A stretch of DNA of 26,187 nucleotides from Chloroflexota bacterium (GCA_018725455.1 QLUN01000001.1:1-26187), one strand, 5' to 3'. Positions 420-25,184 are shown, counted from the first letter of the stretch. Numbers and translations: made by a program. The notes: generated from the letters alone by a model not told the origin.

Positions 420-449
420 ATTGCTCCAGCGCTTTCGCAGCTTTGTTGC
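420..449 (-). promoter_or_regulatory. GCAACA-N18-AGCAAT element, copy 1
   Basis: Sense GCAACA aagctgcgaaagcgctgg AGCAAT; hairpin 397-412; 63 nt from ATG 381. Confidence 0.75.
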
Positions 450-455
450 GATAGC

Positions 456-1460
456 TCACGGCAAGAGCATTTTTCTACGTTCCGCTAGGCGTCCTAGCTG
501 CCTGCGGCGCTCCTCGCCATCAAGAGTTGTGTCGGCGTGCTCTGCGTATCGTGCTGGCATCGTGACGGTTTTCCATCCACCACGCTTCTGCATTTGTGCA
601 AGCGTAGCACCAGAAAGCATCATGTCCTGCGCCCCTCCCACCCTGCCCGAATGACCGCTAAGACCTTCCACGCCCACTAGCTTTCCACCTGTCTCAATGA
701 GCTTGGCTATCTGTCGAGTGGAGATCGGCTGACGACCGCTCCGGTAGGGAGAGGGAAAAAGCCAATCCTCCTCCGGGCACCTCTGGTCTGCAAAAGCGCG
801 ATGAGCCGAGATCCATTTCATCGTTTCTGGACTGATACTGCGAGTGCTACCAGCACCATCCTGATCCGTTTTTGATCGTTCAATCAGCATCTCGCCAGCA
901 TCGCCACGCACAGCGCGGATGTGGCTCAGCCGGAGCGATGAAATCTCACTGATTCTCAGCAGGCCGTCGTAGGCTAGTCCGATCATCGCGCCGATCATGG
1001 CATCACGAGGCCTTGAGGGTGAAAGGGTGGCAAGGATCGATCGCACAACATCCTCAGTCATTCCGATGGCCTGTTTCTGGCGTTTAGTCAGAATGTCGCG
1101 GCAGGCGTGTTTCCAAAAATCCCTGAACTCGGTGTTGTCTGTTGGGTCGGCGTGCCCCAACCTCCGGGATGCTGTTCTGATGGGGTAGAGGAGGGTTGTT
1201 TCAATGCTAGATCGCTTTTTTTTAGACTCAATGTGGCGCTTCACCACGTCAATCAGCAGAGCGTTGTTTGCGGGAATGGGTGGCAGTCCGGCGAGTTCGC
1301 AAGCCCTGCACCACCTTGTCCAGCCATCCGTGAGAACCTGAAGTGTTCGCGGAGCAAACGGCGTGACTTTGCTGCCATACATGACCGTAAAGAACGGTTC
1401 ATCGTAGGCGTCACTGACAATCGCGCGCTGCCGCGATGCGGTAGTCGTAGTCTCGCTCAA
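456..1460 (-). CDS. Cre-like tyrosine recombinase (TnpS/Cre-type resolvase), 334 aa, TTG start
   Basis: Catalytic set LLRISE (R), RSKTD (K), [10 protein letters not shown] (HxxR), GGWK (W as in Cre) and ARY (Y); C-terminal box resembles Cre SGHSARVGAARDM...QAGGW; start overlaps the csrA stop (TTGA). Confidence 0.9.
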
Positions 1461-1666
1461 GACTCTCCCCTCCCTTCTGCCTTAATATCGCACCTTGGTT
1501 TTTTACCGCTGGCGATCCGTTCTGCGACCTCCAGGCGATGTACCGCTACAGACCTTGGTGCATTGATTCCGATCCGAACTTGACCGCCCATTACTGAAAT
1601 AACCGTAACGGTAATTTGGTCGCCGATGGTTAGTGTTTCGCCTGGTTGGCGCGTCAGAATGAGCAT
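1457..1666 (-). CDS. csrA: Carbon storage regulator CsrA/RsmA (69 aa)
   Basis: MLILTR.PGE...IGD.I.V.V....G.QVRIGI.AP..VAVHR.E signature; GAGGAG RBS. Confidence 0.97.
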
Positions 1667-1669
1667 TAA

Positions 1670-2785
1670 TTACTCCTCTTTTCGTGTTTTTTGAAACTTA
1701 AGAAATTGCAATCGTTCCGCGATATTGGCAAGAGCTTCCGGCACCTTGGCGTTCATTTTTTCCATCTCGATGTTTCTTCGCCGCAAATCTTCTATTTCGC
1801 GGTTTAGTGTATTGTTTTCGGCTTGAAGATTGTGCTTGAGGATGTCTTTTTCGGCATCCGCTGAAATGCGATTTTCAAGCTCTCCCTCAAGTGCGATAAT
1901 TCGCTTCTCAAAAGCGTTTTTCGCCTCGGCCCATCGGGAAGCGGCCTCGGATTGTGTCGAGCGCATGCTTTGCACCTCTCGCAAGTGGGCCGTTTTGACC
2001 TCATTGATCGACTCGCGAAGGGCTGTCATTGAGGCTGCCGCCTCGGAAGCCACTCGATCAAGCTCGGCTTGCTTGGCTGCAACAGCAGCTTTCGCAGCAT
2101 CGGCCACAAGGCGTGATGCGGTGAGATCCTCACTGAGAGTGGATAGGCTGTCATTGGCTGTTTTGATGGCCGCCTGGGCCTGCTCGAGGCGTCTTTCGGC
2201 GTCTTTTGCGATGGCTTCAGCGGCTTGTCGTCTAGCTTCAGATTCTCTTCGGTCAGATGCCGCCGAGGCCGCTGATGCGCGAGCCGCTGCTAGCTCTGCA
2301 CTGGCGAGTTCAAGATTAGCCTTGAATATGGGAATAATCCTCTCGTTTTCCTCGGCTTTTTTCGCCAATTCATTTTCTTTGGACTCAGCCATTTTTAGGG
2401 TCTTTTGTGTCGCTTCACGCTCTGCCTCAACGTCAGACCATTCCCTGGCAAGAGCTTCATCAGCAGCCCGACGAGCATCCTCTCGGAGTTCGGCGATAAG
2501 TTCGTGTGCGGCCTTCGGAATATCGCTTGAATTAACAACAGTGATCTGGCCGTGCAGAAGGGCCGGTGCCCGTTCTGCGAACCATCGGCGGACAAGCGGG
2601 TGTAGCGTGTTCGGGCTACCTCCCAATATTCCGCGCACATTGGCTTCGCTAGGGGTTTTCCCGTTCTCAATCAGATGAAGGATGGCATCCTCGACATGAT
2701 TGATGGTTAGGGTTTCACGAGGTTCCCTAATGGGAGCACGGTGTTTCGTCTTTCCGGCAATGCCGGTTGAACTCGACTGATTCAT
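1670..2785 (-). CDS. KfrA_N-domain DNA-binding coiled-coil protein (KfrA/TnpT-like), 371 aa
   Basis: N-terminal GKTPSEANVRGILGGSPNTLHPLVRRW (KfrA_N-like), then about 250 aa of Ala/Glu-rich heptads; CAGGAG RBS before ATG 2785. Confidence 0.8.
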   Translation of the reverse strand: MNQSSSTGIAGKTKHRAPIREPRETLTINHVEDAILHLIENGKTPSEANVRGILGGSPNTLHPLVRRWFAERAPALLHGQITVVNSSDIPKAAHELIAELREDARRAADEALAREWSDVEAEREATQKTLKMAESKENELAKKAEENERIIPIFKANLELASAELAAARASAASAASDRRESEARRQAAEAIAKDAERRLEQAQAAIKTANDSLSTLSEDLTASRLVADAAKAAVAAKQAELDRVASEAAASMTALRESINEVKTAHLREVQSMRSTQSEAASRWAEAKNAFEKRIIALEGELENRISADAEKDILKHNLQAENNTLNREIEDLRRRNIEMEKMNAKVPEALANIAERLQFLKFQKTRKEE

Positions 2786-2954
2786 GATTTCTCCTGGTTG
2801 CAGAGCAGCCCGCATTCGATTGTTGGTTCGTCGGCGTATCGCCAGGAAACCTCCGGCAATTGGTCAAGAAAGACGCACCGTCGAACGCTAGGTTCCGCTC
2901 GACTGGTTTGCGGCACGGCCTATTGCGTGACGGGCCGTAGATCCCGATGCACAT

Positions 2955-3209
2955 TCAAGGCCTCCACACACGAAAAGATGCCGGCGCGGCAGGCGTGCCT
3001 CGTCTGTACTCCACAGCAATCCCTTGCTCAGAGAGGAGCCTTGAGAGCTTGTAGATGGCTTTTGTGGTGGTGCTGGCGACTACGAGCTTCACTTTTGGAT
3101 CTTCTGAACCCGCAACCTCAGACAATTGAAGCCTGACGGGTTGTGACTTGCCTTCCGCGAGTGCGGCGATTCGCTCGGCAATCTGGTTGACGTTCCATTT
3201 TCTGCTCAT
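2955..3209 (-). CDS. Hypothetical protein (84 aa)
   Basis: ORF track 2955..3251; GAGGGG RBS before ATG 3209; a sigma70 promoter overlaps the longer start. Confidence 0.65.
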   Translation of the reverse strand: MSRKWNVNQIAERIAALAEGKSQPVRLQLSEVAGSEDPKVKLVVASTTTKAIYKLSRLLSEQGIAVEYRRGTPAAPASFRVWRP

Positions 3210-3240
3210 CGGCCCCTCTGCGTGGCGCTTCATTCCGTCA

Positions 3241-3269
3241 ATCCTACCCATTTGGCTAATTCATGTCAA
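3241..3269 (-). promoter_or_regulatory. Sigma70-type promoter TTGACA-N17-TAGGAT
   Basis: Perfect -35, 17-nt spacer, 4/6 -10; faces the 3209 gene and possibly the kfrA-csrA-recombinase operon. Confidence 0.75.
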
Positions 3270-3273
3270 ACAC

Positions 3274-3297
3274 TGTACGTCATACATATGATGTACA
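3274..3297. repeat. 24-bp imperfect palindrome TGTACGTCATA-CA-TATGATGTACA (operator or accessory site)
   Basis: 11-bp arms with one mismatch; directly abuts the lox-like site. Confidence 0.75.
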
Positions 3298-3331
3298 TTA
3301 AATTCGTATAATGACACTTAGCGGAAATTAG
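3298..3331. other. lox-like recombination site TTAAATTCGTATA-ATGACACT-TAGCGGAAATTAG
   Basis: 13-8-13 layout; arms 11/13 and 8/13 identical to loxP arms; asymmetric spacer; Cre-like recombinase 1.8 kb away. Confidence 0.7.
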
Positions 3332-3510
3332 AGGTGCGCCAAAGGGGTGAGTGAGCGATCCAAAGCGCGGTTCGCCAGCAGTAGCTCATCGCGGGCTGCG
3401 GCAAGAAGCAGCAACGATCGCAAAGGATGGTTTGGACAAGCCGCCGCCGCTTTGTGCTGCTGATTTTTAGGCCCTATAGTTAGGTTGCATCGGATCTAGC
3501 GGAGATGGAC

Positions 3511-3540
3511 GCAACACGCCGAAAGAGTGGCCGCATCAAC
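3511..3540 (+). promoter_or_regulatory. GCAACA-N18-ATCAAC element, copy 2
   Basis: GCAACA cgccgaaagagtggccgc ATCAAC; hairpin 3548-3562; 64 nt from ATG 3580. Confidence 0.75.
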
Positions 3541-3579
3541 AACGGATGCCGCAATCAGCGGCGCAAAAGGATTGAACAA

Positions 3580-3996
3580 ATGACTCGCCTCACCTACCTT
3601 ATCGGCCACACCAGCCCGCTGCCGCCCTCTCTAACTGATCCAAATAACTACGGGATGATGGATTTCCGTCAGCCATCAGCGAATGGCCAAGAAACGATTC
3701 TGCTTCAGGAGCCAGGTCGCATCATTAATGAGTTCAGAGGAAAAAAATACAGCAGATCGCCGCTTGGAGTATGCTACCGGGATCACTGTTTTGCCCTTAT
3801 CGATAAGAGCTACCAATACATCATTCGTGTTGAAAATAGTGTGGGCACTCTAGATTTTCGCGTATCCCCGTATTTCCCGACGATTTTGATGCCGCTGGAA
3901 AGTGACGCGCGATTTATTCTTATGCACTTAATCTATAATGCGCGCTATCGCCAATGCGGAATCGCGCTGCCGAAAGCGCACTCGGACTGCGATTAA
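3580..3996 (+). CDS. Hypothetical protein (138 aa), paralog of 5914..6315
   Basis: AAGGA RBS; shares L.GH...LP.SL, ET.L.EPGR and LM...SD.RF..L blocks with 5914..6315. Confidence 0.75.
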   Translation: MTRLTYLIGHTSPLPPSLTDPNNYGMMDFRQPSANGQETILLQEPGRIINEFRGKKYSRSPLGVCYRDHCFALIDKSYQYIIRVENSVGTLDFRVSPYFPTILMPLESDARFILMHLIYNARYRQCGIALPKAHSDCD

Positions 3997-4050
3997 ACCC
4001 TGATTTAACCCGCCCTGCGCTGGATGCGCCGGGCATGCTTGGAGAATACA

Positions 4051-4233
4051 ATGAGCGATCCCTACAGAAAGGCATCCGCAGCCAAGGCCAAGGCTGCAAA
4101 AACCGCCACCGCAAAGATCGAGGCTGCTTTCGCTGCGGACATCTTCCGCGTATTCGAAGAATCCGCCAGGGCCAGGGCTGCCAAAGCCAAGAAGGAAGGA
4201 CAGATAACCAAAAAACCCACTACTGTTAAGTAG
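4051..4233 (+). CDS. Small basic Ala/Lys-rich protein (60 aa)
   Basis: GGAG 6 nt before ATG 4051; stop codon falls inside the terminator hairpin. Confidence 0.6.
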   Translation: MSDPYRKASAAKAKAAKTATAKIEAAFAADIFRVFEESARARAAKAKKEGQITKKPTTVK

Positions 4234-4244
4234 TGGGTTTTTTT
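4210..4244. terminator. Bidirectional intrinsic terminator
   Basis: AAAAAACCCACTAC-tgttaa-GTAGTGGGTTTTTTT between convergent genes. Confidence 0.9.
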
Positions 4245-4246
4245 AT

Positions 4247-5074
4247 TCATGGATGCGACACTGGTGGAGCTTTGAATTTTTCACGCAGTCGAACAAGCTC
4301 GCCAGCCACGCCAAGGTTGTACACCTCAATCCCTTTATTTTTTGCAATCCTCAGCGACTGGCCTGTGCCGCCGGCCATTAAGCCATCCCTTGTCCAGCAA
4401 ACGATGAAATCGACCGGGCTTTCAAGATCAGCGCCGAGCAATTGATGGACATTGCGAGCATGGAGTGCTTTCGCCCCATTCTTGCAAGAATCCCATGCTG
4501 GATGAGACTTCGCCGCCAGTGCAAAGGCTTCAGGTGATGGTGTTTGGCTCGAAGAGTGCCCATTAAAGCCAGCCCAGGGCACCCACACCTCTGCATCCCC
4601 TCCGGCGGCCAGTGCGCCCTCCTCGAAAGCAGAGTCGGCACCTATAGCAGCGCCGGAGCGCAAGGTGTAGCCCTTCCCCGCTAAGTACCCGGCAATCTTC
4701 CGCATCGAATCGAGGATTTCTTGCGGAGTTCTTCGTGAGCCGATGCCAGCGTAGGATTTGAATTGACTGGGTTGATTCGTTGAGTTGGCGATTTGCATCA
4801 AGACATCGGCATGGCAAGCGTGCGGGGCACACCAGCACACTAAATCCTTCCCACCGAGTTCAGACCTGATGCGGGTGAGTAGGCCCGGCTCCACATCCAT
4901 TCTATCAATCAACCATCTCCTATAGCGCAAGATCGCCTCATCGCGCGATGAAACTCGGAACTTAGCAATCGTACTGCTCAAGTGCGAGAATGGGTTTCCC
5001 CATTCGGACGGTCGACCAACATACACCGCCGATGGCGGTGTAGCGCCGTGGTGCTTGTTGTAGACGCGAGGCAT
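4247..5074 (-). CDS. DUF4326 + SLOG (DprA/Smf-like) fusion protein, 275 aa
   Basis: N-terminal YVGRPSEWGNPF...GKDLVCWCAPHACHADVL (DUF4326); C-terminal YAGIGSRRTP...LRSGAAIGADSAFE...GGTGQ (SLOG); CAGGAG RBS before ATG 5074. Confidence 0.85.
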   Translation of the reverse strand: MPRVYNKHHGATPPSAVYVGRPSEWGNPFSHLSSTIAKFRVSSRDEAILRYRRWLIDRMDVEPGLLTRIRSELGGKDLVCWCAPHACHADVLMQIANSTNQPSQFKSYAGIGSRRTPQEILDSMRKIAGYLAGKGYTLRSGAAIGADSAFEEGALAAGGDAEVWVPWAGFNGHSSSQTPSPEAFALAAKSHPAWDSCKNGAKALHARNVHQLLGADLESPVDFIVCWTRDGLMAGGTGQSLRIAKNKGIEVYNLGVAGELVRLREKFKAPPVSHP

Positions 5075-5087
5075 GGATTTCTCCTGG

Positions 5088-5116
5088 AAAAACGCCCCGA
5101 GGAAAACCCCGGGGCG
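5088..5116 (-). terminator. Intrinsic terminator between the 6315 operon and the DUF4326-SLOG gene
   Basis: CGCCCCG/CGGGGCG stem followed by T5 on the minus strand. Confidence 0.65.
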
Positions 5117-5127
5117 CTGGTTATGGG

Positions 5128-5355
5128 TCACTCGTGAGCGGCCTTCTTGAGCGAATCGCTCCACCAGTTGCCGGTGATGGCGAAGTGGTACTCATCAGCC
5201 ATGAAGCCAGCGACTCCCGTCTCTCGGACCTCGCGGATGCGTTTCTGGGAGACATTTTGCCGTGCCGCCAGGTCGCTGATTGTGACCCGATGCTTTCGCA
5301 TGAGGCTTGAAACCATCGTTCCCGGCATCCGAAGCCCCGCGTAAGCGGCGCTCAT
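5128..5355 (-). CDS. Small HTH-like protein (75 aa)
   Basis: Start coupled to the upstream stop (TGATG); LMRKHRVTISDLAARQNVSQKRIREV resembles a helix-turn-helix. Confidence 0.6.
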   Translation of the reverse strand: MSAAYAGLRMPGTMVSSLMRKHRVTISDLAARQNVSQKRIREVRETGVAGFMADEYHFAITGNWWSDSLKKAAHE

Positions 5356-5666
5356 CACTCGTACCGTGGTCGACGCAGCGGATAAGGCTGCGGTTGTTCC
5401 CCACGCTGCATCACTGCGCCGTATTGGCCGCCGGCGTAAATCGCACTGCCGACGTCCCTTGTGCCTTCTGATGCCTTTCGAGCTTGATCCCAAAGGCGAT
5501 CCCGGTAACGACTCGCTTTGGCTTTCGACCGGAAGACACGTAGGAAGCGGCGATGCTCAGGCTCGGTGCTCGGCACGTTCGTATCGAAGTGCCAGCCCCC
5601 TTCCTCCGGGCCGCCATAGGCACGATCCAACTCGTGCAGGGCGACCACAAACCGACGGCGGCTCAC
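5355..5666 (-). CDS. Hypothetical protein with a YGGPEEGGW motif (103 aa)
   Basis: ORF track; ATGA overlap with the upstream gene; motif typical of a mobile-element hypothetical family (recognition only). Confidence 0.75.
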   Translation of the reverse strand: MSRRRFVVALHELDRAYGGPEEGGWHFDTNVPSTEPEHRRFLRVFRSKAKASRYRDRLWDQARKASEGTRDVGSAIYAGGQYGAVMQRGEQPQPYPLRRPRYE

Positions 5667-6315: not shown

Positions 6316-6353
6316 GATTGATTTCCAAGTGAGTACCGTATTGGCGCATCACT

Positions 6354-6383
6354 AATGCCGAAGCCCTTGCCCAAGTCTGTTGC
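6354..6383 (-). promoter_or_regulatory. GCAACA-N18-GGCATT element, copy 3
   Basis: GCAACA gacttgggcaagggcttc GGCATT; 63 nt from ATG 6315. Confidence 0.7.
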
Positions 6384-6427
6384 GTGCCCTTTCTGGGCAG
6401 CCTTTGCATCTGCCCGCCACCAACATT

Positions 6428-6460: not shown

Positions 6461-6475
6461 GTTGTGAAGCAAGGG

Positions 6476-7201
6476 TTAGAGAGGATCTAAGCCCAGACCT
6501 TGCAGCAACATCGGTGCTGGCAACGCTCCGCCGAAGTCCTTGCCGTTCTGATCAAACACGCCGGGTGTGCCGCGAACACCAAGCGCCGCGCCGGCGGCGA
6601 TGGCCGGCATCAAATCAATCGAGCAACCCGGCTTTGGCGTTGCATGGTTCTCAGGGCTGACCATGTAGGCAGACAGCGCAGCTTTCGGATCAGCCGAACA
6701 CCAAATGTCACGCATCACGACATAGGCGGGGCTCGCCTTCCCGCCGCGGGGCCACGGGTAATAGGTGACGCTCACGCCTTGTGCGTTTAGCTCCGGGATC
6801 GTCGCCTTATGGAAGCTCACGCAAAACGAGCACGAAACATCAGTGAATACAATGAGGTGTCCGCGTTCATTCTCTGCGGGATAGCGGATAGCCAAGTGAG
6901 AAGGAAGGTGTGCAATCGATGCACGCCTCACCTCTTCCATGCGCTCAACCGTGTAGGAGTGGTGATCCGCCACTCGGACAACATTACCAAAAACAACGTG
7001 ACGACCATTGTTCAGCACATAAGCGACATTGCCGCCGTTGTAAGTGACCTCAGTCCAGCCTCGAAGCGGGCCGTCCGCAACGCGATCAACAATCGCTCCT
7101 GGCACTAGCGCGGTAATCGCAGCAGCTTCTTTGGATTCTGATGCAAATGCTGCGCCAGCAAGGCCCACTGCAAGTGCAGTGGCAATCAATGTTTTTTTCA
7201 T
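6476..7201 (-). CDS. dsbC: DsbC-family thiol:disulfide isomerase (241 aa)
   Basis: Signal peptide MKKTLIATALAVG; VFTDVSCSFC (CxxC); WPRGG; GVRGTP (cis-Pro loop). Confidence 0.9.
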   Translation of the reverse strand: MKKTLIATALAVGLAGAAFASESKEAAAITALVPGAIVDRVADGPLRGWTEVTYNGGNVAYVLNNGRHVVFGNVVRVADHHSYTVERMEEVRRASIAHLPSHLAIRYPAENERGHLIVFTDVSCSFCVSFHKATIPELNAQGVSVTYYPWPRGGKASPAYVVMRDIWCSADPKAALSAYMVSPENHATPKPGCSIDLMPAIAAGAALGVRGTPGVFDQNGKDFGGALPAPMLLQGLGLDPL

Positions 7202-8941: not shown

Positions 8942-8943
8942 TC

Positions 8944-9215: not shown

Positions 9216-9245
9216 ATAATCCTTGCAAAAAAGCGCCCATGTTGC
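9216..9245 (-). promoter_or_regulatory. GCAACA-N18-GATTAT element, copy 4 (weak second box)
   Basis: 63 nt from ATG 9177; second box deviates from consensus. Confidence 0.5.
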
Positions 9246-12037: not shown

Positions 12038-12256
12038 TGTTTTTGGCCTCGCGTCGTCACGCATTAAAATGGACGAAGGAGCCGCGCGACCCTGCCTGTC
12101 GTTCTGGCTGAACCTTCAAAGGACAATGAGAAAATGCTCGCCTTCAGCATCTCCACTACCAACAACAATAAATCCAGCGCCATCAACCCAGTATCCTTAA
12201 GTTGGATGTTACGGGATTCTATAAGCCGACGCTACCCTCTTGTCGGGAGGCGCATC

Positions 12257-12889
12257 ATGGATTCACGGAAATTTGAAGATGAGATCTTCCCTCGAACGGA
12301 TCTTGAGAAGCGCCTATCCATCGCAATGGGCCTAAACCCGTCATTTGCGATCCGCCTTCCTCCAGCAACATTCATTCGCGCCTGGAAGGACAGGGCCATT
12401 CTATACCTTCGACAAGACTGTCTGCCTGAAAGTGAAACGCCAGAGACGTTTTCTGAAAAATTGACAGCAGACCTCGCATTTGCCGAGCTTGGGGGGCCTT
12501 CCTTCGCTGCTCGCTACTCCCCTCAGTGCATTGGAGGACCAACACAGGGGCCGATTCAGTACAAGAGCCGCAAATTGGCGCTCCCTTACGCAGATGAGTG
12601 CGAGCTTCCTTGGGCGTGGATCGACATCCGCATCCGCGAAGCGATCTTCCTCTCGCTTTCGGCAGATAAATCAACCTTCCCAGAGAGCGTGGCCAGGGTC
12701 GAAAAGGCTCCGTTGAACATCGAACTCATGGCGGCAAGAAAAAAACAGTACACAGAAGCCACGGAGGCAGATATTTACGACATCACCTTTCAGATGAACG
12801 CCCGATTCAATGTGCCATTGGCGCTTGGACTGACGGTTTTACCGCACGACATCATTCATTCGGTAGCAGCGCCGGATCGCAAGATTTGA
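12257..12889 (+). CDS. Hypothetical protein (210 aa), possibly a degenerate ImmA/IrrE-like fold
   Basis: GGGAGG RBS before ATG 12257; LAFAELG recalls LAHELGH but lacks HExxH. Confidence 0.6.
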   Translation: MDSRKFEDEIFPRTDLEKRLSIAMGLNPSFAIRLPPATFIRAWKDRAILYLRQDCLPESETPETFSEKLTADLAFAELGGPSFAARYSPQCIGGPTQGPIQYKSRKLALPYADECELPWAWIDIRIREAIFLSLSADKSTFPESVARVEKAPLNIELMAARKKQYTEATEADIYDITFQMNARFNVPLALGLTVLPHDIIHSVAAPDRKI

Positions 12890-17774: not shown

Positions 17775-17813
17775 TCAATCTCTCCTTTTGAGCCCGTTAG
17801 TGGGCCGATGGGG

Positions 17814-17843
17814 ATTGATGGAAGCCGCAGTGATCGGTGTTGC
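17814..17843 (-). promoter_or_regulatory. GCAACA-N18-ATCAAT element, copy 5
   Basis: 64 nt from ATG 17774; hairpin 17792-17805. Confidence 0.75.
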
Positions 17844-17859
17844 AAGTGTTTTTTTGAAC

Positions 17860-18251: not shown

Positions 18252-18290
18252 CGTTGAACTCCGTAACGCCGGCCATCTGCCGGCAGTCGG

Positions 18291-18320
18291 ATTGCTCTCG
18301 GATTGATTACGATTCGTTGC
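18291..18320 (-). promoter_or_regulatory. GCAACG-N18-AGCAAT element, copy 6
   Basis: 64 nt from ATG 18251; hairpin 18268-18284. Confidence 0.72.
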
Positions 18321-18347
18321 GAGAAAAAGGCTGTAACGACCTTGAGC

Positions 18348-18607: not shown

Positions 18608-18652
18608 TTCCTGTACTCCTGTCAGTACATTTCCTCGAAGTGAGGCAGCAGC

Positions 18653-18682
18653 ATTGCCCGCTCCTCTAGTGTGGGTTGTTGC
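18653..18682 (-). promoter_or_regulatory. GCAACA-N18-GGCAAT element, copy 7
   Basis: 70 nt from ATG 18607; hairpin 18633-18645. Confidence 0.75.
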
Positions 18683-18691
18683 GTGCTCTTG

Positions 18692-18809: not shown

Positions 18810-18819
18810 ATTGGTTTTG

Positions 18820-20007
18820 TTAAGCCGCCTGCTTCTGGGAAGCGATGCGGCGAGCCTTGACGGTGAGTTGTTCGTGGATCCGTATCAGGATTGACGGATC
18901 AGCAGCTTCAAAGCTACTTGTTCCGTGATACGCCAATACGTTGGCCGGATCCGTCTTAGTTCTATCTATCAGACCGCTGATCTCTTCAATCAACCGATCG
19001 CGAGCATCCTTGTCTCCCGGTGAATGAGCCTCGCTCGAGGCACCAGATGCCTCGGGCGCTGGAGTCTCCTTTGGAGTCTCCTTTGGAACTTCCTTGTCGA
19101 TCTGTTGCATCGCTGCCAACTCGTCCATTGATGCTTTGGCGTAAATGGACAATCCGTACCCGGTACAATGGGCTATGGCCTTCGCCAGGCAGCGCATGAC
19201 TGCTGTGTTCCACATGGCTGCCGTGGGGTTAAGGCACGGCTGGTTGTGTAGGATCACTTTCTTATTTGCCTTGCTGGTGATCTCCTTTGACTCCGTGATG
19301 GCAAGAGTTTCCTCGTGCTCAATACCCTTGTAAGCCACCTTGACAGTAACCAGGTACCCTCCCGGAACCCGGAGGTAGGGCTGAACAGAAGCCTCACCAT
19401 TTTCATTGGAAGTGTCAAATTCGACCACTTGCCAATGGAAGTTCGGATCTGTGATCCGGGCAGCGGCAAGAGCAGAAGGCCACTCTAGATAAGGGCGGCG
19501 CTCTGCCATCCCCACTCGGGGCTCAACGATTGAGAGATCTGTTTCTGGTGTAACACCAACCTCGTTCACAAAATCAACGCCGTTGGTGAAAACGGAATTT
19601 CTACCGCTCTTCAGGTGTACACCAAGGCCGATGCCAAGGGCCATTGAAATGCTCTTTCTTTTGGTGGTTGTAATCCCGTCCGCGATGTCCCGGCTATCAA
19701 GACGATCAACAGGAATGGGCTGATTCTTGTTGTCGAGAATCACGGAAAACGACCGACAAGGCTTTTCACCGAATCCTTTCGTATCTACGGCAATTACCGC
19801 CCCTCCGAATACCTCTCGGTACGGCAGATCATCCTTGTATCGGACAACCGCCTGTTTTGGTCGGTTGGCTAGAATGATGATTCTGGAAGTCGGAACGTAG
19901 GTTAGTGGAATCTTGTTCCCACTTTTTTTGTCCTCAATCTCAAGGACAAATGAAAAAGGCGTTACATCGACGCATGCAGCGTCGAAAAACGATTTATGTG
20001 CTTTCAT
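18820..20007 (-). CDS. Sak3-like (DUF1071) single-strand annealing protein with two tandem domains (395 aa)
   Basis: Second domain ends NTAVMRCLAKAIAHCTGYGLSIYA (Sak3 signature); first ends KRKSISMALGIGLGVH; GGAG RBS before ATG 20007. Confidence 0.8.
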   Translation of the reverse strand: MKAHKSFFDAACVDVTPFSFVLEIEDKKSGNKIPLTYVPTSRIIILANRPKQAVVRYKDDLPYREVFGGAVIAVDTKGFGEKPCRSFSVILDNKNQPIPVDRLDSRDIADGITTTKRKSISMALGIGLGVHLKSGRNSVFTNGVDFVNEVGVTPETDLSIVEPRVGMAERRPYLEWPSALAAARITDPNFHWQVVEFDTSNENGEASVQPYLRVPGGYLVTVKVAYKGIEHEETLAITESKEITSKANKKVILHNQPCLNPTAAMWNTAVMRCLAKAIAHCTGYGLSIYAKASMDELAAMQQIDKEVPKETPKETPAPEASGASSEAHSPGDKDARDRLIEEISGLIDRTKTDPANVLAYHGTSSFEAADPSILIRIHEQLTVKARRIASQKQAA

Positions 20008-20043
20008 CTGCAACTCCATTAAGCCGCAGGACGCGGCAGGAAT

Positions 20044-20073
20044 GTTGCTAAAGCTTGAGCTTGCATCTGTTGC
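20044..20073 (-). promoter_or_regulatory. GCAACA-N18-AGCAAC element, copy 8
   Basis: 61 nt from ATG 20007; hairpin 20023-20037. Confidence 0.75.
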
Positions 20074-20096
20074 GTGCGTGGAGTTATTTTACAAAC

Positions 20097-20744
20097 TCAT
20101 TCGCAGGCAACACCGTCCCTGTCGCGATCCATTGAAGCACGGTACTCCGGCGAGCCCAGTTGAGCCGGAGCCCTCCCTGCCCGACGCAGGTCATCACACG
20201 TCATGACCCCAGGGTCATTAGGCCTTCGATTGGATAATTCCACGCCTTCAGCGCTGCTACGCCCGCGATTGGCTGATCGAAAGTCCCACGGCGCTACGAA
20301 CTCGCCCTGCCAAACACCTCGTCGCTCTCTTCGAGCTTCCGCAGCGCCTGCAAGGTGCTTTCTGCCTCCGAACTGCACATAGGGTAGAGCCCATCCGTTT
20401 CTAATCATCCAAGCGTTGACGCTCACTTGGCCCATGTAGCACTCGCCGATTGCTCGCTTGAATCGATCACGAGCGGCCACCTCGCATCGAACGTTTTGGC
20501 TGCCAATGAAATCTGACAAAGCTAGTGCCGCTTGCTGACCACAGCGATATTCGCGGCCGCCAGAATCACTGCACGTTTGCGACGACTCAGGCGCGTCTAT
20601 CGCGCTTAGCCGCACCCTCTCAGAGCGAATTTCGATGGTGTCGCCATCAATCACTGAAGCACGCCCGATGAGGGTCTGGCCCTCGGATAACACAGGAAAA
20701 GCTGCAATGGCCGCAGCAAGAGCAACGCAAGAACGGTAACGCAT
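20097..20744 (-). CDS. Secreted thermonuclease (SNase-like) with a C-terminal Excalibur Ca-binding domain (215 aa)
   Basis: Signal peptide; VIDGDTI, VRLSAIDAPE, DRFKR; C-terminal CDDLR...MDRDRDGVACE. Confidence 0.9.
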   Translation of the reverse strand: MRYRSCVALAAAIAAFPVLSEGQTLIGRASVIDGDTIEIRSERVRLSAIDAPESSQTCSDSGGREYRCGQQAALALSDFIGSQNVRCEVAARDRFKRAIGECYMGQVSVNAWMIRNGWALPYVQFGGRKHLAGAAEARRERRGVWQGEFVAPWDFRSANRGRSSAEGVELSNRRPNDPGVMTCDDLRRAGRAPAQLGSPEYRASMDRDRDGVACE

Positions 20745-20780
20745 CGCACCCCCCCTTTTTTTGCCCTCAAAGCAACAGTG

Positions 20781-21098
20781 CTAGACAACAGGCCCACCCA
20801 TGCCAAGGCTGCGCATCATAGCCTCGGAGGCTTCTAGGCAATCATTGCACCAGGGCTCGAATAGATTGGGGCCAACCTCAACGCGAACCGTTGACGGCTT
20901 GCTCATACAGCACTGGCACAATCCCTTACCCACCGGCTTTGGCGTCCCTAACGGCATGATGTCAACACCACACGTCTTGCAGGGCAATATAAAGGTGTTG
21001 AACTCCAGCTTGCTGCGTCGAGAGAGTGGCGGCGCTAAAAGATGCCCGCAAGAACCGCAAGCAGACTTCGGCCCTGGGAAGTTAATGATGTTGCTCAT
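20781..21098 (-). CDS. Cys-rich putative zinc-binding protein (105 aa)
   Basis: CGSC, CKTC, CQCC and CNDC motifs. Confidence 0.65.
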   Translation of the reverse strand: MSNIINFPGPKSACGSCGHLLAPPLSRRSKLEFNTFILPCKTCGVDIMPLGTPKPVGKGLCQCCMSKPSTVRVEVGPNLFEPWCNDCLEASEAMMRSLGMGGPVV

Positions 21099-21242
21099 GA
21101 GCTACTCACTTGTGTTGCTTCCGATGTGTGCATGGATCAAGCATAGCCCTGTCATCGCGTGAGACAAAAACACCAGTGTTTACTTGGGCCTCGAGGCACC
21201 AATTGGCGGCACGGAGCCTGCTTGCCAAGCAACCCCAAAAGG

Positions 21243-21275
21243 AAAAAAGCCCCGACAAATACCGTGTCGGGGCTT
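21243..21275 (-). terminator. Intrinsic terminator
   Basis: AAGCCCCGACA-aataccg-TGTCGGGGCTT; A6 on the left. Confidence 0.85.
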
Positions 21276-21280
21276 GCTTA

Positions 21281-21496
21281 TCATCGTCTGAAGTTTTTGG
21301 CCTTGGCCTTGAAGGCCGAATAGGCGACCCAGCCCCCTATGGCCGAGCTTCCGACTAACAGGCCCAGCGTTACTGCTGGAACCAGAATTTCCATCATAAA
21401 TGCAGGAAAAAACTGGAACCCGAAGACAATGATTCCAATGCAAATGAAAAGGCCTATGAAAGCTCCCGCCCCGACCCTTGCTTCCTGCTCATTCAT
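21281..21496 (-). CDS. Small membrane protein with 2 predicted TM segments (71 aa)
   Basis: GGAG RBS; start overlaps the upstream stop; two hydrophobic stretches and a basic tail. Confidence 0.7.
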   Translation of the reverse strand: MNEQEARVGAGAFIGLFICIGIIVFGFQFFPAFMMEILVPAVTLGLLVGSSAIGGWVAYSAFKAKAKNFRR

Positions 21497-21674
21497 TGAA
21501 TTCTCCAGTGAAGGAGAGGCCCATAAATGCTCCGAAAGTTCCGAAGCGGATTCCAAGGGCACCTGAAAGGGCTGGGTTAAGCCCTTGTCTGCCATCGGCC
21601 TCCAGTGAAGCCAAGTCGGCGGCCTCAGCCGCCTGTTTTGCGGCTTCAGCCGCAAAAATGAGATCAAAAAGCAT
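21489..21674 (-). CDS. Hypothetical protein (61 aa)
   Basis: CAGGAG RBS before ATG 21674. Confidence 0.6.
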   Translation of the reverse strand: MLFDLIFAAEAAKQAAEAADLASLEADGRQGLNPALSGALGIRFGTFGAFMGLSFTGEFNE

Positions 21675-21733
21675 TCTGTACTCCTGCCCCGGTTGGTTGT
21701 GTGGGCGAATGCCCGCTGAGTTGGGGCAAAGGA

Positions 21734-21764
21734 GTTGATGTTTGGATTTCGCAAGCACTGTTGC
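21734..21764 (-). promoter_or_regulatory. GCAACA-N19-ATCAAC element, copy 9
   Basis: Spacer one base longer; 85 nt from ATG 21674; back-to-back with copy 10. Confidence 0.55.
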
Positions 21765-21778
21765 GAGCATGCCGGCAT

Positions 21779-21808
21779 GCAACAGTCATCGCCCTTTGTT
21801 CATGCAAT
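21779..21808 (+). promoter_or_regulatory. GCAACA-N18-TGCAAT element, copy 10
   Basis: 63 nt from ATG 21847; hairpin 21814-21830. Confidence 0.75.
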
Positions 21809-21846
21809 TCCGCTGTCGCAATCCGCGACAAGTAAAGAGAAAGAGG

Positions 21847-22035
21847 ATGTTGTACCCATGCGCCATTAAGCAATACGGCTTCTATGAAGGCATCGGTCAT
21901 ACGACCAGCCTCACGGGAGCAAAGGCAATACTGATTCAGTTTTGTGAAAGATTCAAACAACCCGAGGTCAGTCGAAAACTGATTCGTCTTGATGGCGAAA
22001 TGGTTGAGGCTTTCGTATTTGAGTCCGATCAATAA
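21847..22035 (+). CDS. Hypothetical protein (62 aa; MLYPCAIKQYGFYEG...)
   Basis: 3' part of track ORF 21742..22035; AAGAGG RBS; motif, hairpin and terminator all in register. Confidence 0.65.
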   Translation: MLYPCAIKQYGFYEGIGHTTSLTGAKAILIQFCERFKQPEVSRKLIRLDGEMVEAFVFESDQ

Positions 22036-22038
22036 AGC

Positions 22039-22074
22039 AACCCCCCTTTCTCTAGTGATAGAGATTGGGGGGTT
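22039..22074. terminator. Hairpin/terminator between convergent genes
   Basis: AACCCCCC-tt-TCTCTA-gtga-TAGAGA-tt-GGGGGGTT. Confidence 0.7.
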
Positions 22075-22079
22075 ATTGG

Positions 22080-22529
22080 TTATTTGAAAGAGAGTGCTGA
22101 AAGCGCCCTTTCTATGTAACGGGCGATGTCCGTGCATTTTAGATACCACAAGATGTGGCCTCTAAACCCGGCATAACTGTCGGGCTTCATGAGTAACCGG
22201 AGGCGCTTAACCGCCCTCAGGTGTTCCTTGGCCTCGGCCAAGTCAAACCTCCTGGCATCCCCATTGCCACCAACCACCAAAACGATAGTGGGCAGATGCG
22301 GAATTATCTTCACCTGAATAATTCTTGTGTTGCCTGGCGGCCGCATCACCGCGCCAACTTGTGCAGGCGTCTTGCCTGCCACTCCGGGGTGGAACATGAA
22401 AACATCCCCCTCCCCCCCGGCATCTTCGATCAGCCTCTGGGCCAGCCTTTGCTGACCAGCGGTGGCCTTGGCCATTTCGCCCTTGAACGAATCGCCGTAT
22501 AGTTCGGCGTCTAGTAAAATGGGTGTCAT
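22080..22529 (-). CDS. Hypothetical protein (149 aa)
   Basis: AAGGAG RBS before ATG 22529. Confidence 0.72.
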   Translation of the reverse strand: MTPILLDAELYGDSFKGEMAKATAGQQRLAQRLIEDAGGEGDVFMFHPGVAGKTPAQVGAVMRPPGNTRIIQVKIIPHLPTIVLVVGGNGDARRFDLAEAKEHLRAVKRLRLLMKPDSYAGFRGHILWYLKCTDIARYIERALSALSFK

Positions 22530-22571
22530 CAGAACTCCTTGATTTATTTCTGGGCTGCTCCCAGTCAACGA

Positions 22572-22601
22572 AATGCCCTGCTATAAGCAGGGCATTGTTG
22601 C
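22572..22601 (-). promoter_or_regulatory. GCAACA-N18-GGCATT element, copy 11
   Basis: 67 nt from ATG 22529; hairpin 22550-22564; the spacer is itself palindromic (AATGCCCTGCT-ata-AGCAGGGCATT). Confidence 0.75.
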
Positions 22602-22610
22602 AAGCGCGTC

Positions 22611-22853
22611 CTACCGACGAAACGGCGACCTGCTGGCGGAAAGCAGCTTCAGAATTGTTGCGCCGTGCTCGGCCAGATAGCGTCCTGAGCGGATCTCGGC
22701 AACATCTGCGGCAGACGTTCGAAAGCCGCTCAAAGCAAACTCAGCGCGAGCGCGATTGATCGCATCCATTGCTGAAATCAAGCCGGCCTCGACCGCTGAA
22801 GAGATCGGCGGGTCATCTGCCGCCTTCTGGCATGCTTGAATTGGTTCATTCAT
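22611..22853 (-). CDS. Hypothetical protein (80 aa)
   Basis: ORF track; GAGAGG RBS. Confidence 0.68.
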   Translation of the reverse strand: MNEPIQACQKAADDPPISSAVEAGLISAMDAINRARAEFALSGFRTSAADVAEIRSGRYLAEHGATILKLLSASRSPFRR

Positions 22854-22893
22854 ACGATCCTCTCTTTTGTGCGTCGTGGTTTACGACACCCCC

Positions 22894-22923
22894 ATTGCTC
22901 CCTCTCGCCTAGCTAGGTGTTGC
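22894..22923 (-). promoter_or_regulatory. GCAACA-N18-AGCAAT element, copy 12
   Basis: 65 nt from ATG 22853; hairpin 22873-22887. Confidence 0.78.
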
Positions 22924-22931
22924 AGCAATTG

Positions 22932-22964
22932 AAAAAAAACACCCGCTGATTGCTCAGCGGGTGT
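22932..22964 (-). terminator. Intrinsic terminator
   Basis: ACACCCGCTGA-ttgc-TCAGCGGGTGT; A8 on the left. Confidence 0.88.
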
Positions 22965-22971
22965 GGTGAAA

Positions 22972-23967
22972 TTAGGCAACCAATGTGATCGCCCAACTTT
23001 TGGTACCCTCCTTGCGGAAGGACTCCATCTTTTCCTCAGAGAGTGTCACTCGTGCGATCAAAGACGGGTCTTTGATGCCCGACTCATTGAGTACGGCCAG
23101 CACTTCAGCCTGAAGCGCCTTGACTGCCTCAGCCATGTCCACCGCGCCCTTTCTGGCACTCTCTGTTGCCCGAACCTTATCGATCTCAACCTTCGGCTCG
23201 CCCGATTTTTTTGCATAGCCGATAATCAAATCTCGGCTTGCATTCATCACATCCGTCTCTCTTTCAATTATTAGCTTGCTGGAGCGGTAGGCTTCTGCCG
23301 CATTCAGCACTTCCACCGGGATTTTTCGACCGCACTTCACCTCATCCCAGAAGCGAAGATGTAGGGGGATGAGTCCCTCGGCCATACGCCGAAGCGCGTC
23401 GTTTCGAGCACTAATAACCGCGAGAACCGTCTCGCCCTCGCGATGGTTTACGAAGTGAATCTCCCGAGACAAATCCCACGCTTCCGGTCGCCCCCATGCG
23501 GTAATTGCCTGATGAACAATCTGCGGGAAGTAGTAAGGCACAACGCGCCCTTCTTTTGCCATCCGGTGAACATCGGCATTGGCGACCTTGATCTCCAAGA
23601 GAACATCAAGCTCCAGATCAGCGCCGTCGAAAGACGATCGAATGATCGGAAACTCATCCATCTCACCAAAAATTGGTGAAGTGAGGATTCCGGTGGTTTT
23701 TTCGTGCCATTGCTTGATGATCGGCTCAAGTTCCTTGCCTCGCCGCATTGCGAAACTCTCCTTGAACTCCCTCTTCTCCCCTTGCTTCTCCCGAACCAGC
23801 GCTGGGTAGTCCCGCTGCCAACTCGCAGCATCTGAGGATGAAAGCAGCCCTCCTTGAAAAGCTATCGTTGCCGCATCGGAGCCGCCGATACCACCGGATC
23901 GCCAGTGGTGCCAACGGGCACTGTCAGGCGAGCCTGACTCCGTCAATTCAAAATGAACGTGCTTCAT
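22972..23967 (-). CDS. YqaJ-like (lambda-exonuclease family) recombination exonuclease (331 aa)
   Basis: W...RSGGIGGSDAA; MRRGKELEP; RSSFDG; LLEIK; YYFPQIVHQ; AGGAGG RBS before ATG 23967. Confidence 0.92.
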   Translation of the reverse strand: MKHVHFELTESGSPDSARWHHWRSGGIGGSDAATIAFQGGLLSSSDAASWQRDYPALVREKQGEKREFKESFAMRRGKELEPIIKQWHEKTTGILTSPIFGEMDEFPIIRSSFDGADLELDVLLEIKVANADVHRMAKEGRVVPYYFPQIVHQAITAWGRPEAWDLSREIHFVNHREGETVLAVISARNDALRRMAEGLIPLHLRFWDEVKCGRKIPVEVLNAAEAYRSSKLIIERETDVMNASRDLIIGYAKKSGEPKVEIDKVRATESARKGAVDMAEAVKALQAEVLAVLNESGIKDPSLIARVTLSEEKMESFRKEGTKSWAITLVA

Positions 23968-24003
23968 TAAGCCTCCTATCCCCGGCAAAGCGCCGGTAGG
24001 GGG

Positions 24004-24033
24004 GTTGCTTAGAGCGTCAAAAAATAGTGTTGC
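24004..24033 (-). promoter_or_regulatory. GCAACA-N18-AGCAAC element, copy 13
   Basis: 61 nt from ATG 23967; hairpin 23982-23996. Confidence 0.78.
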
Positions 24034-24046
24034 GTGATGAAACGAC

Positions 24047-24076
24047 GCAACAACTTACGCATAGATTCAGATCAAC
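24047..24076 (+). promoter_or_regulatory. GCAACA-N18-ATCAAC element, copy 14
   Basis: 64 nt from ATG 24116; hairpin 24082-24101. Confidence 0.78.
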
Positions 24077-24115
24077 CCTTCTTGCCGCACTGACGCGGTA
24101 ATGTGGGAGTTTCAG

Positions 24116-24625
24116 ATGGAATCAAAGCATGGTTCCGCGCTTTCGGGTGGTGTCTGGGAGCTTGCGGAAGACGAGGATAGGTCAATTCCAAAAAGTCGAT
24201 CCGAAGCAATAAGGGAAGCGTGCGAGGATAGAGAGCCAGAAACTCGGCTTCTTGCCGAGATCATTGCTTTAGCAGTGGAGGACTTAGAGGTAATCGAAGC
24301 AACAAAAGGTTTTGCAATCGAAGTTAGTGACGACCTGCGGTTAAGCGCAGTGAGTTCAGCAACCTTCTTTATAAAGGGCGTTGCCGGAGAGTATATGAAG
24401 CTGATTGGCATCGAATCAGTACTGCCACAGCTTAAGGCAAGGTCAATTGGTGTCCTTGGTGCGCTTGGCCCCGGATGGTCGCATCTCTCAAAGCTAAAAG
24501 ACGATAAGGCGAATCAGCGGATTTTCAAAGCGCTTGGTATTGCTAGGCGGCCCATTGATCGCATGGATGCGCCAGCTAGCGCAAGATCAGGAATGAGAAA
24601 CAAGCTGGTTGTCAGTCTTGTATAA
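24116..24625 (+). CDS. Hypothetical protein (169 aa)
   Basis: GGGAG RBS before ATG 24116; helical core PETRLLAEIIALAVEDL...SATFF. Confidence 0.72.
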   Translation: MESKHGSALSGGVWELAEDEDRSIPKSRSEAIREACEDREPETRLLAEIIALAVEDLEVIEATKGFAIEVSDDLRLSAVSSATFFIKGVAGEYMKLIGIESVLPQLKARSIGVLGALGPGWSHLSKLKDDKANQRIFKALGIARRPIDRMDAPASARSGMRNKLVVSLV

Positions 24626-24646
24626 AGCCCCTAATCTGTATCGTAT

Positions 24647-24720
24647 AAAAACCCTGCCCTGAAAGCCAGAGCAGGGTTTTCTTTTGCAAAAAAAAAGAAA
24701 CCCCGCATTTGCGGGGTTTC
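24647..24720. terminator. Two adjacent terminators, one for each convergent gene
   Basis: AAAACCCTGC...GCAGGGTTTT with a following T-tract (+); GAAACCCCGC-attt-GCGGGGTTTC with A9 on the left (-). Confidence 0.88.
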
Positions 24721-24760
24721 TGAGTGCTTCAAAAGGTTCGCAAGAACGAATCAGTACGGA

Positions 24761-25117
24761 TCAGTACGGATCAGACTCATCACTCTCAAGCTCTTCCGTG
24801 CCTGAAGACTTCGGTGAGAGATAGGCGATCGAAGATGCAACCACCTTAACGGAGGTTCTCTCCTTGCCCTCTTTGTCGGTATATTGTTCTACAACCAAGT
24901 GGCCTGAAACACCGAGTCGATCACCCTTCTTGATGGCTGCCAATCGCTCACCCTGCCCACCCCAAGCTTCGACGTTGAGCCAGAGCGGCTCCCTATCCTT
25001 GCCATTACTCACGGCAACGCGCACTTTTGACACCGCCTTGTCGACGCCAACCCTTGAACTGGTGGCGTCGCCACCTGCATTTCCATAAAAACTGTAGTTG
25101 TTGTTGAAACGTGACAT
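24761..25117 (-). CDS. ssb: Single-stranded DNA-binding protein (118 aa)
   Basis: GNAGGD, WLNVEAWG, KKGD..GVSGHL....YTDKEG; acidic tail ESDESDPY; GGAG RBS before ATG 25117. Confidence 0.92.
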   Translation of the reverse strand: MSRFNNNYSFYGNAGGDATSSRVGVDKAVSKVRVAVSNGKDREPLWLNVEAWGGQGERLAAIKKGDRLGVSGHLVVEQYTDKEGKERTSVKVVASSIAYLSPKSSGTEELESDESDPY

Positions 25118-25154
25118 TTCTTGCTCCGGTGAGATCCGAAATTGGATCAGGGTA

Positions 25155-25184
25155 TTTGCAGCTTGAAAAAAATAACCGTGTTGC
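25155..25184 (-). promoter_or_regulatory. GCAACA-N18-TGCAAA element, copy 15
   Basis: 62 nt from ATG 25117; hairpin 25133-25148. Confidence 0.72.

Follow-up and report, generated by a model that had tools for sequence, protein, structure and literature searches.

A recurrent box-and-hairpin module marks a putative promoter class for establishment and DNA-metabolism genes on uncultivated conjugative plasmids

Results and Discussion

The window and its modules

The DNA analyzed here (hereafter the window) is a stretch of 26,187 nt from a Chloroflexota bacterium (GCA_018725455.1 QLUN01000001.1:1-26187), which constitutes the entire contig C1 of a 1.3-Mb, 54%-complete metagenomic bin. Among its genes are ssb and those for a YqaJ-type exonuclease, a Sak-type annealase, and an SNF2/DarB-like protein, each of which is preceded by a module of ~60 nt. 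The module consists of YGCAACA (box 1), 18-19 nt, (G/T)CAA(T/C) (box 2), 6-7 nt, a covarying 5-bp hairpin, ~10 nt, a Shine-Dalgarno site, and ATG. It is absent from the dsbC, HDOD, primase-helicase, and hns genes, as a first-pass annotation of the same DNA had also noted for both groups. The module is almost certainly a promoter-plus-leader cassette defining an establishment/DNA-metabolism regulon on an uncultivated family of conjugative plasmids.

The first-pass annotation had described fifteen copies of a bipartite pattern, GCAACA-N18-RKCAAY, each facing a gene on one strand or the other. In its exact form, the pattern occurs eight times in the 26-kb window, compared with an expectation of 0.08 ± 0.27 (0 of 100 shuffles reached eight); GCAACA by itself is also enriched (44 versus 16.4). 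The 1.3-Mb assembly contains 15 exact copies, and none of a reversed-pattern control. Sixty related genomes contain between 0 and 8 copies each, which is near background and indicates that the motif belongs to the element rather than to a host regulon. A covariance model (R1) was built from 42 copies. In agreement with relaxed scans, it recovered 14 of the fifteen sites in the window as modules (Table 1), 11 of them on one strand, and every one lies upstream of a same-strand ORF (open reading frame) with a Shine-Dalgarno site. Box 1 is ~66-75 nt away from the ATG, close to the 61-70 nt given before, and the end of box 2 is 36-45 nt away from the start codon (59 nt in one case). The fifteenth copy (9216-9245, minus strand; GCAACA-N18-GATTAT) has no hairpin and was not recovered by R1; it is not counted as a member and may be a hybrid or a sigma-70-type promoter.

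The module is found across one plasmid. R1 yielded 27 matches in the bin, 25 of them on contigs C1, C24, C57, C255, and C230, one on C223, and one, marginal, on C146. The first six contigs belong to one conjugative plasmid of more than 88 kb with an IncQ-type RepC, which further encodes EAL, RecD2, UvrD, topoisomerase III, ParM, RadC, SSB, and T4P-like proteins. Contig C223 is the type IV secretion contig, with genes for VirB4, a VirB11-like ATPase, a coupling protein, and an HD-domain relaxase-like protein of MOBH-like type; its single module lies before a Toprim primase gene. Judging from the sequence, about two thirds of the transcription units of this groundwater plasmid would start from the shared module.

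A covarying hairpin follows the two boxes

Column statistics were taken from 55 distinct copies. Box 1 reads GCAAC in all of them, with A as the sixth base in 50; it is preceded by a pyrimidine (C in 40, T in 15) and, further 5′, by a C/G-rich lead-in. The spacer between the boxes is not conserved in sequence but is 18 nt long in the window (19 nt in module 8) and 18-19 nt long in relatives. Box 2 starts with G or T, followed by C (55/55), A (54/55), A (47/55), and T (34/55). A C-rich stretch of 6-7 nt comes next, its last base being T in 39/55. The seventh base after box 2 is a purine without exception (G in 48, A in 7) and is the first base of the stem. The stem comprises 5 bp, the loop comprises 5-6 nt and mostly starts with A, and ~10 nt 3′ of the stem are followed by a GGAG-type Shine-Dalgarno site and the start codon. 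The hairpin, which is also part of the element and sits at the predicted start site, had been missed in the earlier description.

The hairpin behaves as a conserved RNA structure. The 28 nt after box 2 have a mean minimum free energy of −9.85 kcal/mol, as compared with −4.74 ± 0.37 in shuffles. In a MAFFT alignment of the 42 copies, 86.7% of the cells of the stem are paired (64.6 ± 1.8 in shuffles) and 32 double-sided changes occur (7.0 ± 2.9); in the model-fitted alignment of the 55 copies, pairing is 89.5% (66.4 ± 1.6) with 45 double changes (8.6 ± 2.8). None of 500 shuffles reached these values in either case, and slid controls of stem pairing in the 55-copy alignment gave 30-56%. Stem sequences are diverse (GCCGC, GATCC, CTGGG, GGCCC, GAGTC, and others), and the outer stem pair is G-U in 23 copies. 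Because G-U pairs work only in sense-strand RNA (or a sense single strand), this argues against an operator recognized by a protein on duplex DNA. That the hairpin is an intrinsic terminator was considered and rejected: it is followed not by a T-run but by a purine-rich leader and the Shine-Dalgarno site, and the true terminators sit upstream of box 1.

The module is conserved in related plasmids

Metagenomic relatives were reached via homologues of the Sak protein. In one lineage (B; contigs L024, L029, L121, L030, L118, L120, L124, and L125, from several samples; GC content 62-67%), Sak is 56% identical to that of the window, and in a third lineage (L027 and L028), 58%. In both, the same module precedes the orthologous sak, SNF2, ssb, yqaJ, uvrD, and other genes. 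A comparison of orthologous promoters showed 100% identity in box 1, with a box 2 and a hairpin kept in each; spacer identity is between 0.11 and 0.56, and compensatory changes distinguish the stems. In 311 kb of loci, R1 gave 69 matches, all of them in the plasmid of the window, in lineage B, and in the third lineage (L027). No match at E ≤ 0.1 was obtained in ~153 kb from the more distant plasmids L036, L037, pSTJ2, pAt1, and pRMAN01.

Megablast against PLSDB found no close relative, and the protein matches in PLSDB were only the distant plasmids pRMAN01, pAt1, and pSTJ2, all without the module. A search of a collection of species genomes with the Sak protein and a RecD2 alignment found no plasmid carrying the module, a scan of metagenome contigs added only two short lineage B contigs, and tblastn of lineage B proteins against the assembly revealed no further plasmid contigs.

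The module has the properties of a promoter

In two cases (modules 5 and 11; box 1 at 18320 and 22923), a strong rho-independent terminator comes to its end 10-20 nt ahead of box 1, and further terminators lie at 18809-18781, 21275-21247, and 24721-24696. The units are, thus, largely monocistronic, each needing a promoter within its 70-nt module. Moreover, two divergent pairs (21734-21764/21779-21808 and 24004-24033/24047-24076, from box to box) occupy whole intergenic regions back to back, and the pair between yqaJ and the gene for a 169-aa protein is retained in the relative L024. Between 17 and 26 kb, one sigma-70-like promoter was called, as compared with 4.2 expected, and none inside a module.

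Bipartite promoters of the sigma-70 family, irrespective of the sigma, have two conserved boxes at a fixed spacing of ~17 ± 1 nt, and the two boxes of the module, 18-19 nt apart, agree with this. Multi-subunit RNA polymerase prefers to start at Y(−1)R(+1). The spacing of 18-19 nt, together with a purine 7 nt past box 2 that usually follows a T, is consistent with the geometry of this polymerase and its preferred start. A housekeeping sigma-70 promoter was rejected, since the modules do not have TTGACA/TATAAT-like hexamers (A at −11, T at −7; position −11 is G or T in the modules); the earlier statement that the boxes do not match sigma-70 is thereby borne out. The same annotation had called the pattern promoter-like, and the upstream terminators, the divergent pairs, the fixed spacing, the purine 7 nt past box 2, the conservation of the boxes but not of the spacers, and the depletion of sigma-70-like promoters support the promoter reading well.

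Each copy is, therefore, probably a complete promoter-plus-leader cassette for a multi-subunit bacterial RNA polymerase with a non-housekeeping sigma factor. YGCAACA would serve as the −35 element, (G/T)CAA(T/C), 18-19 nt downstream, as the −10 element, and the purine 7 nt past box 2 as the putative transcription start. As this purine also opens the stem, every mRNA would begin with a flush 5′-terminal stem-loop, with the ribosome-binding site ~10 nt later. The hairpin may block 5′-end-dependent decay and leave the ribosome-binding site free. In this manner, the cassette would drive ~26 mostly monocistronic units, encoding SSB, the Sak annealase, the YqaJ exonuclease, an SNase nuclease, the SNF2/DarB-like enzyme, UvrD, RadC, the Toprim primase, many orphan proteins, and one non-coding RNA, which together could form a single switchable establishment/DNA-metabolism regulon apart from sigma-70-type promoters. 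An "establishment/recombination programme", as put forward earlier, would fit this gene content.

Table 1. Modules recovered by covariance model (CM) R1 in the window, with the genes that they precede. Positions are in nt from the first letter of the window and run in the direction of the module for its parts and genes.
Module	Span	Strand	Box 1	Box 2	Predicted +1	Stem	Gene or operon	Remarks
1	393-453	-	449-444	424-420	G412	412-408/401-397	99-aa ORF, 381-82	CM E 2e-7
2	3507-3566	+	3511-3516	3536-3540	G3548	3548-3552/3558-3562	138-aa ORF, 3580-3996	CM match
3	6329-6387	-	6383-6378	6358-6354 (GCATT)	G6347		operon 6315->4247: 133-aa, 84-aa, 103-aa ORFs, then DUF4326/DprA-like	CM match
4	17787-17847	-	17843-17838	17818-17814	G17806		1615-aa SNF2/DarB-like, 17774-12927	CM match; T-run of upstream terminator abuts box 1
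5	18265-18324	-	18320-18315 (variant GCAACG)	18295-18291	G18284		115-aa ORF, 18251-17904	CM match; terminator 18378-18353 upstream
6	18628-18686	-	18682-18677	18657-18653	G18646		71-aa ORF, 18607-18392	CM match; terminator 18809-18781 upstream
7	20019-20077	-	20073-20068	20048-20044	G20037		Sak-type annealase, 20007-18820	CM match; orthologous modules in L024, L027
8	21708-21768	-	21764-21759	21738-21734	G21727		small ORF, 21674-21489	CM match; 19-nt spacer; back to back with module 9
9	21775-21833	+	21779-21784	21804-21808	G21815		62-aa ORF, 21847-22035	top CM match, E 2e-8
10	22547-22605	-		GCATT	A22565		149-aa ORF, 22529-22080	weakest; CM E 0.011 (whole genome), 0.0027 (over loci)
11	22869-22927	-	22923-22918	22898-22894	G22887		80-aa ORF, 22853-22611	CM match; terminator 22964-22939 right before box 1
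12	23978-24037	-	24033-24028	24008-24004	A23997		YqaJ-type exonuclease, 23967-22972	CM match; back to back with module 13; divergent pair kept in L024
13	24043-24103	+	24047-24052	24072-24076	G24084		169-aa all-alpha orphan, 24116-24625	CM match
14	25129-25188	-	25184-25179	25159-25155 (GCAAA)	G25148		ssb, 25117-24761	CM match

Sigma-70-like promoters were seen before units without the module. One (TTGACA-17-TAGGAT; 3241-3269, minus strand) lies before a kfrA-csrA-integrase operon, and another (12043-12070, plus strand) before a conserved orphan ORF of 251 aa (12134-12889) adjoining hns. The plasmid, thus, appears to have two promoter classes. No clear promoter was seen for the hns, HDOD, replication, and transfer units, which do not have the module either. 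With respect to transcription in situ, plasmid fragments that cover hns, sak, yqaJ, ssb, and the 169-aa gene, among others, are present in two groundwater metatranscriptomes, but these fragments could also stem from DNA carry-over.

Which factor reads the boxes?

The E. coli RpoE consensus is GGAACTT-N16-TCAAA, and the boxes of the module are not those of the sigma-70, sigma-54, sigma-32, or sigma-28 consensus. The module resembles promoters of sigma-E and other sigma factors of the extracytoplasmic function (ECF) type in the AAC motif of its −35 box (GCAAC, invariant, versus GGAAC), in its −10 box ((G/T)CAA(T/C) versus GTCAAA), in its rigid spacing, and in being present in many dispersed copies as one regulon. 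It differs in its spacer, which is ~2 nt longer. In addition, ECF sigma genes are usually under their own control and paired with an anti-sigma gene, and neither an ECF sigma gene nor such a pair was found on the incompletely assembled plasmid or its relatives. A search of the literature for ECF promoters of the GCAAC type returned nothing that matched.

The first-pass annotation had gone further and proposed an ECF-like sigma or an activator encoded by the element itself; for this, the searches gave no support. No profile match to Sigma70_r2, r4, or r4_2 over the assembly fell on the plasmid contigs, and FlhC had no match in the whole (54% complete) assembly. Pfam revealed no candidate among about 60 plasmid proteins, and Pfam plus PHROGs revealed none among 45 orphan proteins of lineage B. 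A local hidden Markov model of 13 ECF sigmas had its best match among six-frame ORFs at E 0.04, in an antisense frame, and hhalign of 59 orphans against the ECF alignment reached a probability of 6% at most. ESM-Atlas look-ups of two orphans were uninformative. AlphaFold2 models of the 251-aa and 169-aa orphans had a pLDDT (predicted local distance difference test score) of 47 and 58, respectively, which is too low for a fold search. The two ECF genes of the bin are on chromosomal-looking contigs (C207 and C73), beside anti-sigma genes, and their upstream regions do not have the motif. The only helix-turn-helix candidate, an Xre-type protein of lineage B, has no counterpart in the bin. F-plasmid TraR reportedly activates sigma-E-dependent transcription (Grace et al. 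2015, listed in PMC9239242), a precedent linking conjugation to sigma-E; no TraR-type domain was detected here. Since both plasmids are incompletely assembled, the factor may be an orphan protein of the plasmid or, just as well, an ECF-type sigma of the host.

Alternative explanations

Several observations do not sit well with a −35/−10 pair read by a sigma factor. Searches of ~88 kb of the plasmid and ~65 kb of a relative turned up no sigma factor, FlhDC-like activator, or polymerase; the spacer is ~2 nt longer than in the E. coli RpoE geometry; and the metatranscriptomes, assembled into short contigs, provided no informative 5′ ends on the window. On the distant plasmids L036 and L037, only one CAAC box is present beside the hairpin, an arrangement more in keeping with a compact promoter than with a −35/−10 pair. 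In addition, (G)CAAY is common to box 1, box 2, and between 13 and 19 of 42 hairpin loops, so that one protein could bind repeated sites. Plasmids commonly control their backbone regulons through repeated operators, and the GCAAY boxes might be sites of a single plasmid-encoded activator or global repressor in the style of KorA/KorB or ArdK, with whose help the housekeeping polymerase initiates. We consider this unlikely, because nowhere does the module have a conserved −10 element of the sigma-70 type (A at −11, T at −7) and the region contains fewer sigma-70-like promoters than expected. Furthermore, the boxes are direct repeats 25 bp apart, which does not place them on one face of the helix, and no helix-turn-helix protein is common to both lineages. 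The compact arrangement on L036 and L037, CAACTC-N4-5-GAAC before a hairpin (as CAAC-N6-7-GAAC, 13 occurrences in L036 versus 1.3 expected), could also mean that box 2 and the initiation hairpin are the core promoter, read by a dedicated single-subunit or novel polymerase among the orphans, with box 1 as an auxiliary. Late transcripts of the T7 type do start with a 5′ stem-loop, and dozens of orphan proteins have no assigned function. Yet neither a protein resembling an RNA polymerase nor a suitably large orphan was seen, and the invariance of box 1 at fixed spacing (55/55) is typical of bipartite recognition by a sigma factor, which makes such a polymerase improbable.

It is even less probable that the module acts only at the RNA level, as a processing, stabilizing, or translation-control element inside longer transcripts. 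The RNA-like covariation of the hairpin with its many G-U pairs, the fixed distance to the ribosome-binding site, and the CsrA homologue encoded by the plasmid are compatible with such a role, but terminators are found just upstream of several modules, the divergent pairs leave no space for other promoters, boxes 1 and 2 are conserved as sequence without a pairing partner, and the loops contain no GGA motifs. The genes served are typical of leading regions (ssb, anti-restriction-like genes, methylases, and recombination genes), and 11 of the 14 copies in the window share one orientation, as might be expected if the module were a promoter or priming signal on single-stranded DNA (like Frpo/ssi or those of phage N4) that permits early expression from the incoming transferred strand; Frpo provides a precedent (PMC11541004). 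Against this, copies are present on both strands, including back-to-back pairs, and the structure is a 5-bp stem only, boxes 1 and 2 having no complementary arm, unlike the long hairpins of Frpo. Of the explanations weighed here, we therefore give this one very little credence.

A cassette read by a multi-subunit polymerase with a non-housekeeping sigma remains our preferred explanation. A bolder proposal, which can only be put forward tentatively, is that transcription on these plasmids relies on a private system. In this view, a sigma-like factor or polymerase, unrecognizable by sequence and hidden among the orphan ORFs, would read GCAACA-N18/19-GCAAT promoters and start every message with a protective hairpin. 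On entry, the plasmid would then express its establishment, recombination, and anti-restriction functions in a burst that does not depend on the host; in L036, L037, and pSTJ2, the factors would have co-evolved with the variant CAAC-plus-hairpin modules.

Comparison with known systems

Regulons of mobile elements with a private promoter consensus are already known; new are the consensus, its fusion to a hairpin at the start site, and the lack of a recognizable factor. Examples of private sigma regulons are those of SigN/ZpdN of Bacillus subtilis pBS32, of SPO1 gp28 and gp33/34, and of T4 gp55. As in these, many genes of a mobile element appear to be under a non-host promoter consensus and switched together; here, no sigma is recognizable, and the promoter is fused to a covarying 5′-terminal hairpin at the predicted start.

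Short 5′-terminal stem-loops that stabilize mRNA are known from the leaders of ompA and T7 gene 10. The predicted leaders share with them a short hairpin at the very 5′ end, few or no unpaired bases, and an accessible ribosome-binding site thereafter, and by analogy, the flush hairpin should stabilize the mRNAs. Unlike in those leaders, the hairpin recurs as a regular component of ~26 promoters of a single replicon, with varying sequence and fixed position.

Frpo is a long imperfect hairpin that mimics a duplex sigma-70 −35/−10 promoter on the transferred strand only (PMC11541004; PMC9849209). Like Frpo/ssi elements, the module serves ssb, anti-restriction, and methylase genes, and a secondary structure (DNA or RNA) adjoins the promoter; unlike them, it has non-sigma-70 boxes, a stem downstream of these boxes, and occurs on both strands. 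An Frpo/ssi promoter was rejected as no long imperfect hairpin forms; only the 5-bp stem folds consistently.

FlhDC-like activators (AcaCD/SetCD) act through boxes on MOBH plasmids and SXT/R391 elements, the box of AcaCD being ~28 bp long (PMC4207636). As with the module, ~15-20 promoters across the plasmid share a box at −35, and the context here also includes a MOBH-like relaxase and a type IV secretion system. The box sequence is different, AcaCD promoters keep a sigma-70 −10 element, and no FlhC was detected in this assembly. Identity with the AcaCD box was rejected because the example boxes in PMC4207636 have a different sequence, and the 27-bp motif of ICEclc was set aside since, in the PinR promoter, 152 bp separate it from the mapped start downstream.

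Taken together, a regulon of ~26 transcription units was defined from sequence alone, with start sites predicted to the nucleotide. The identity of the factor would show how a broad class of environmental plasmids controls when ssb, recombination, and anti-restriction genes are expressed, with neither the Frpo nor the FlhDC-type systems of enteric plasmids. If it is found, the cassette, with orthogonal boxes, a defined +1, a presumably stabilizing 5′ hairpin, and a fixed distance to the ribosome-binding site, would be a ready expression part.

Further observations on the plasmid and its relatives

The host of the plasmid is uncertain. The genes for H-NS, CsrA, and DsbC, and the nearest homologues in betaproteobacterial plasmids, contrast with the contigs of the bin that carry ECF and signal-peptidase genes; the plasmid may be mis-binned.

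One module is not followed by an ORF. On L033 (identical to C57), at 6585-6911 (minus strand), a module (6853-6911) is followed by ~280 nt of structured sequence (−136 kcal/mol, z = −7.0) with a terminator at its end and no significant Rfam family. Blocks of this region are ~80% conserved in lineage B (L029, 15366-15573), again preceded by a module (L029, 15583-15642, minus strand). The region is probably a non-coding RNA of the plasmid that belongs to the same regulon.

Near-identical copies of a module occur at L032 2771-2830 (minus strand) and L034 5500-5559 (plus strand; compare window 394-453). In these, an 8-bp inverted repeat, CAGTGCTC ... GAGCACTG, brackets the region from box 1 to box 2, which may point to an extra operator or to two related plasmids in the bin.

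In other groundwater samples (runs X4 and X2), contigs skip window positions 19639-23265 or break at 19609, 21458, and 21491, and share a loose-end sequence of ~30-40 nt, ...CCCTTTCCCCGTTT[A/G]AA[A/T]GGGGATTAAGA. A small insert, repeated or mobile, seems to be present in variant plasmids within window 19609-23265.

Variant modules were seen on the more distant plasmids. On L036 and L037, metagenomic plasmids with a Sak protein 36-38% identical to that of the window, (ACGCC-N3-4-)CAACTC-N4-5-GAAC lies directly before a covarying-looking hairpin upstream of many genes, and the distance of this box to the ATG equals that of box 2 in the window. A third module type was observed on plasmid pSTJ2 of Sulfuricystis multivorans (L031; NZ_AP018720.1), where about a dozen same-strand genes between 14000 and 35000 are preceded by CAACCCC, a GC hairpin of 12-14 bp, and GGCATGGTG. 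These include leading region-like genes for RecT, SSB, ArdC, RadC, and SNF2, and pSTJ2 encodes regulators of the FlhC and AcaB families. The occurrence of CAAC-plus-hairpin variants in other betaproteobacterial plasmids suggests that the principle is widespread.

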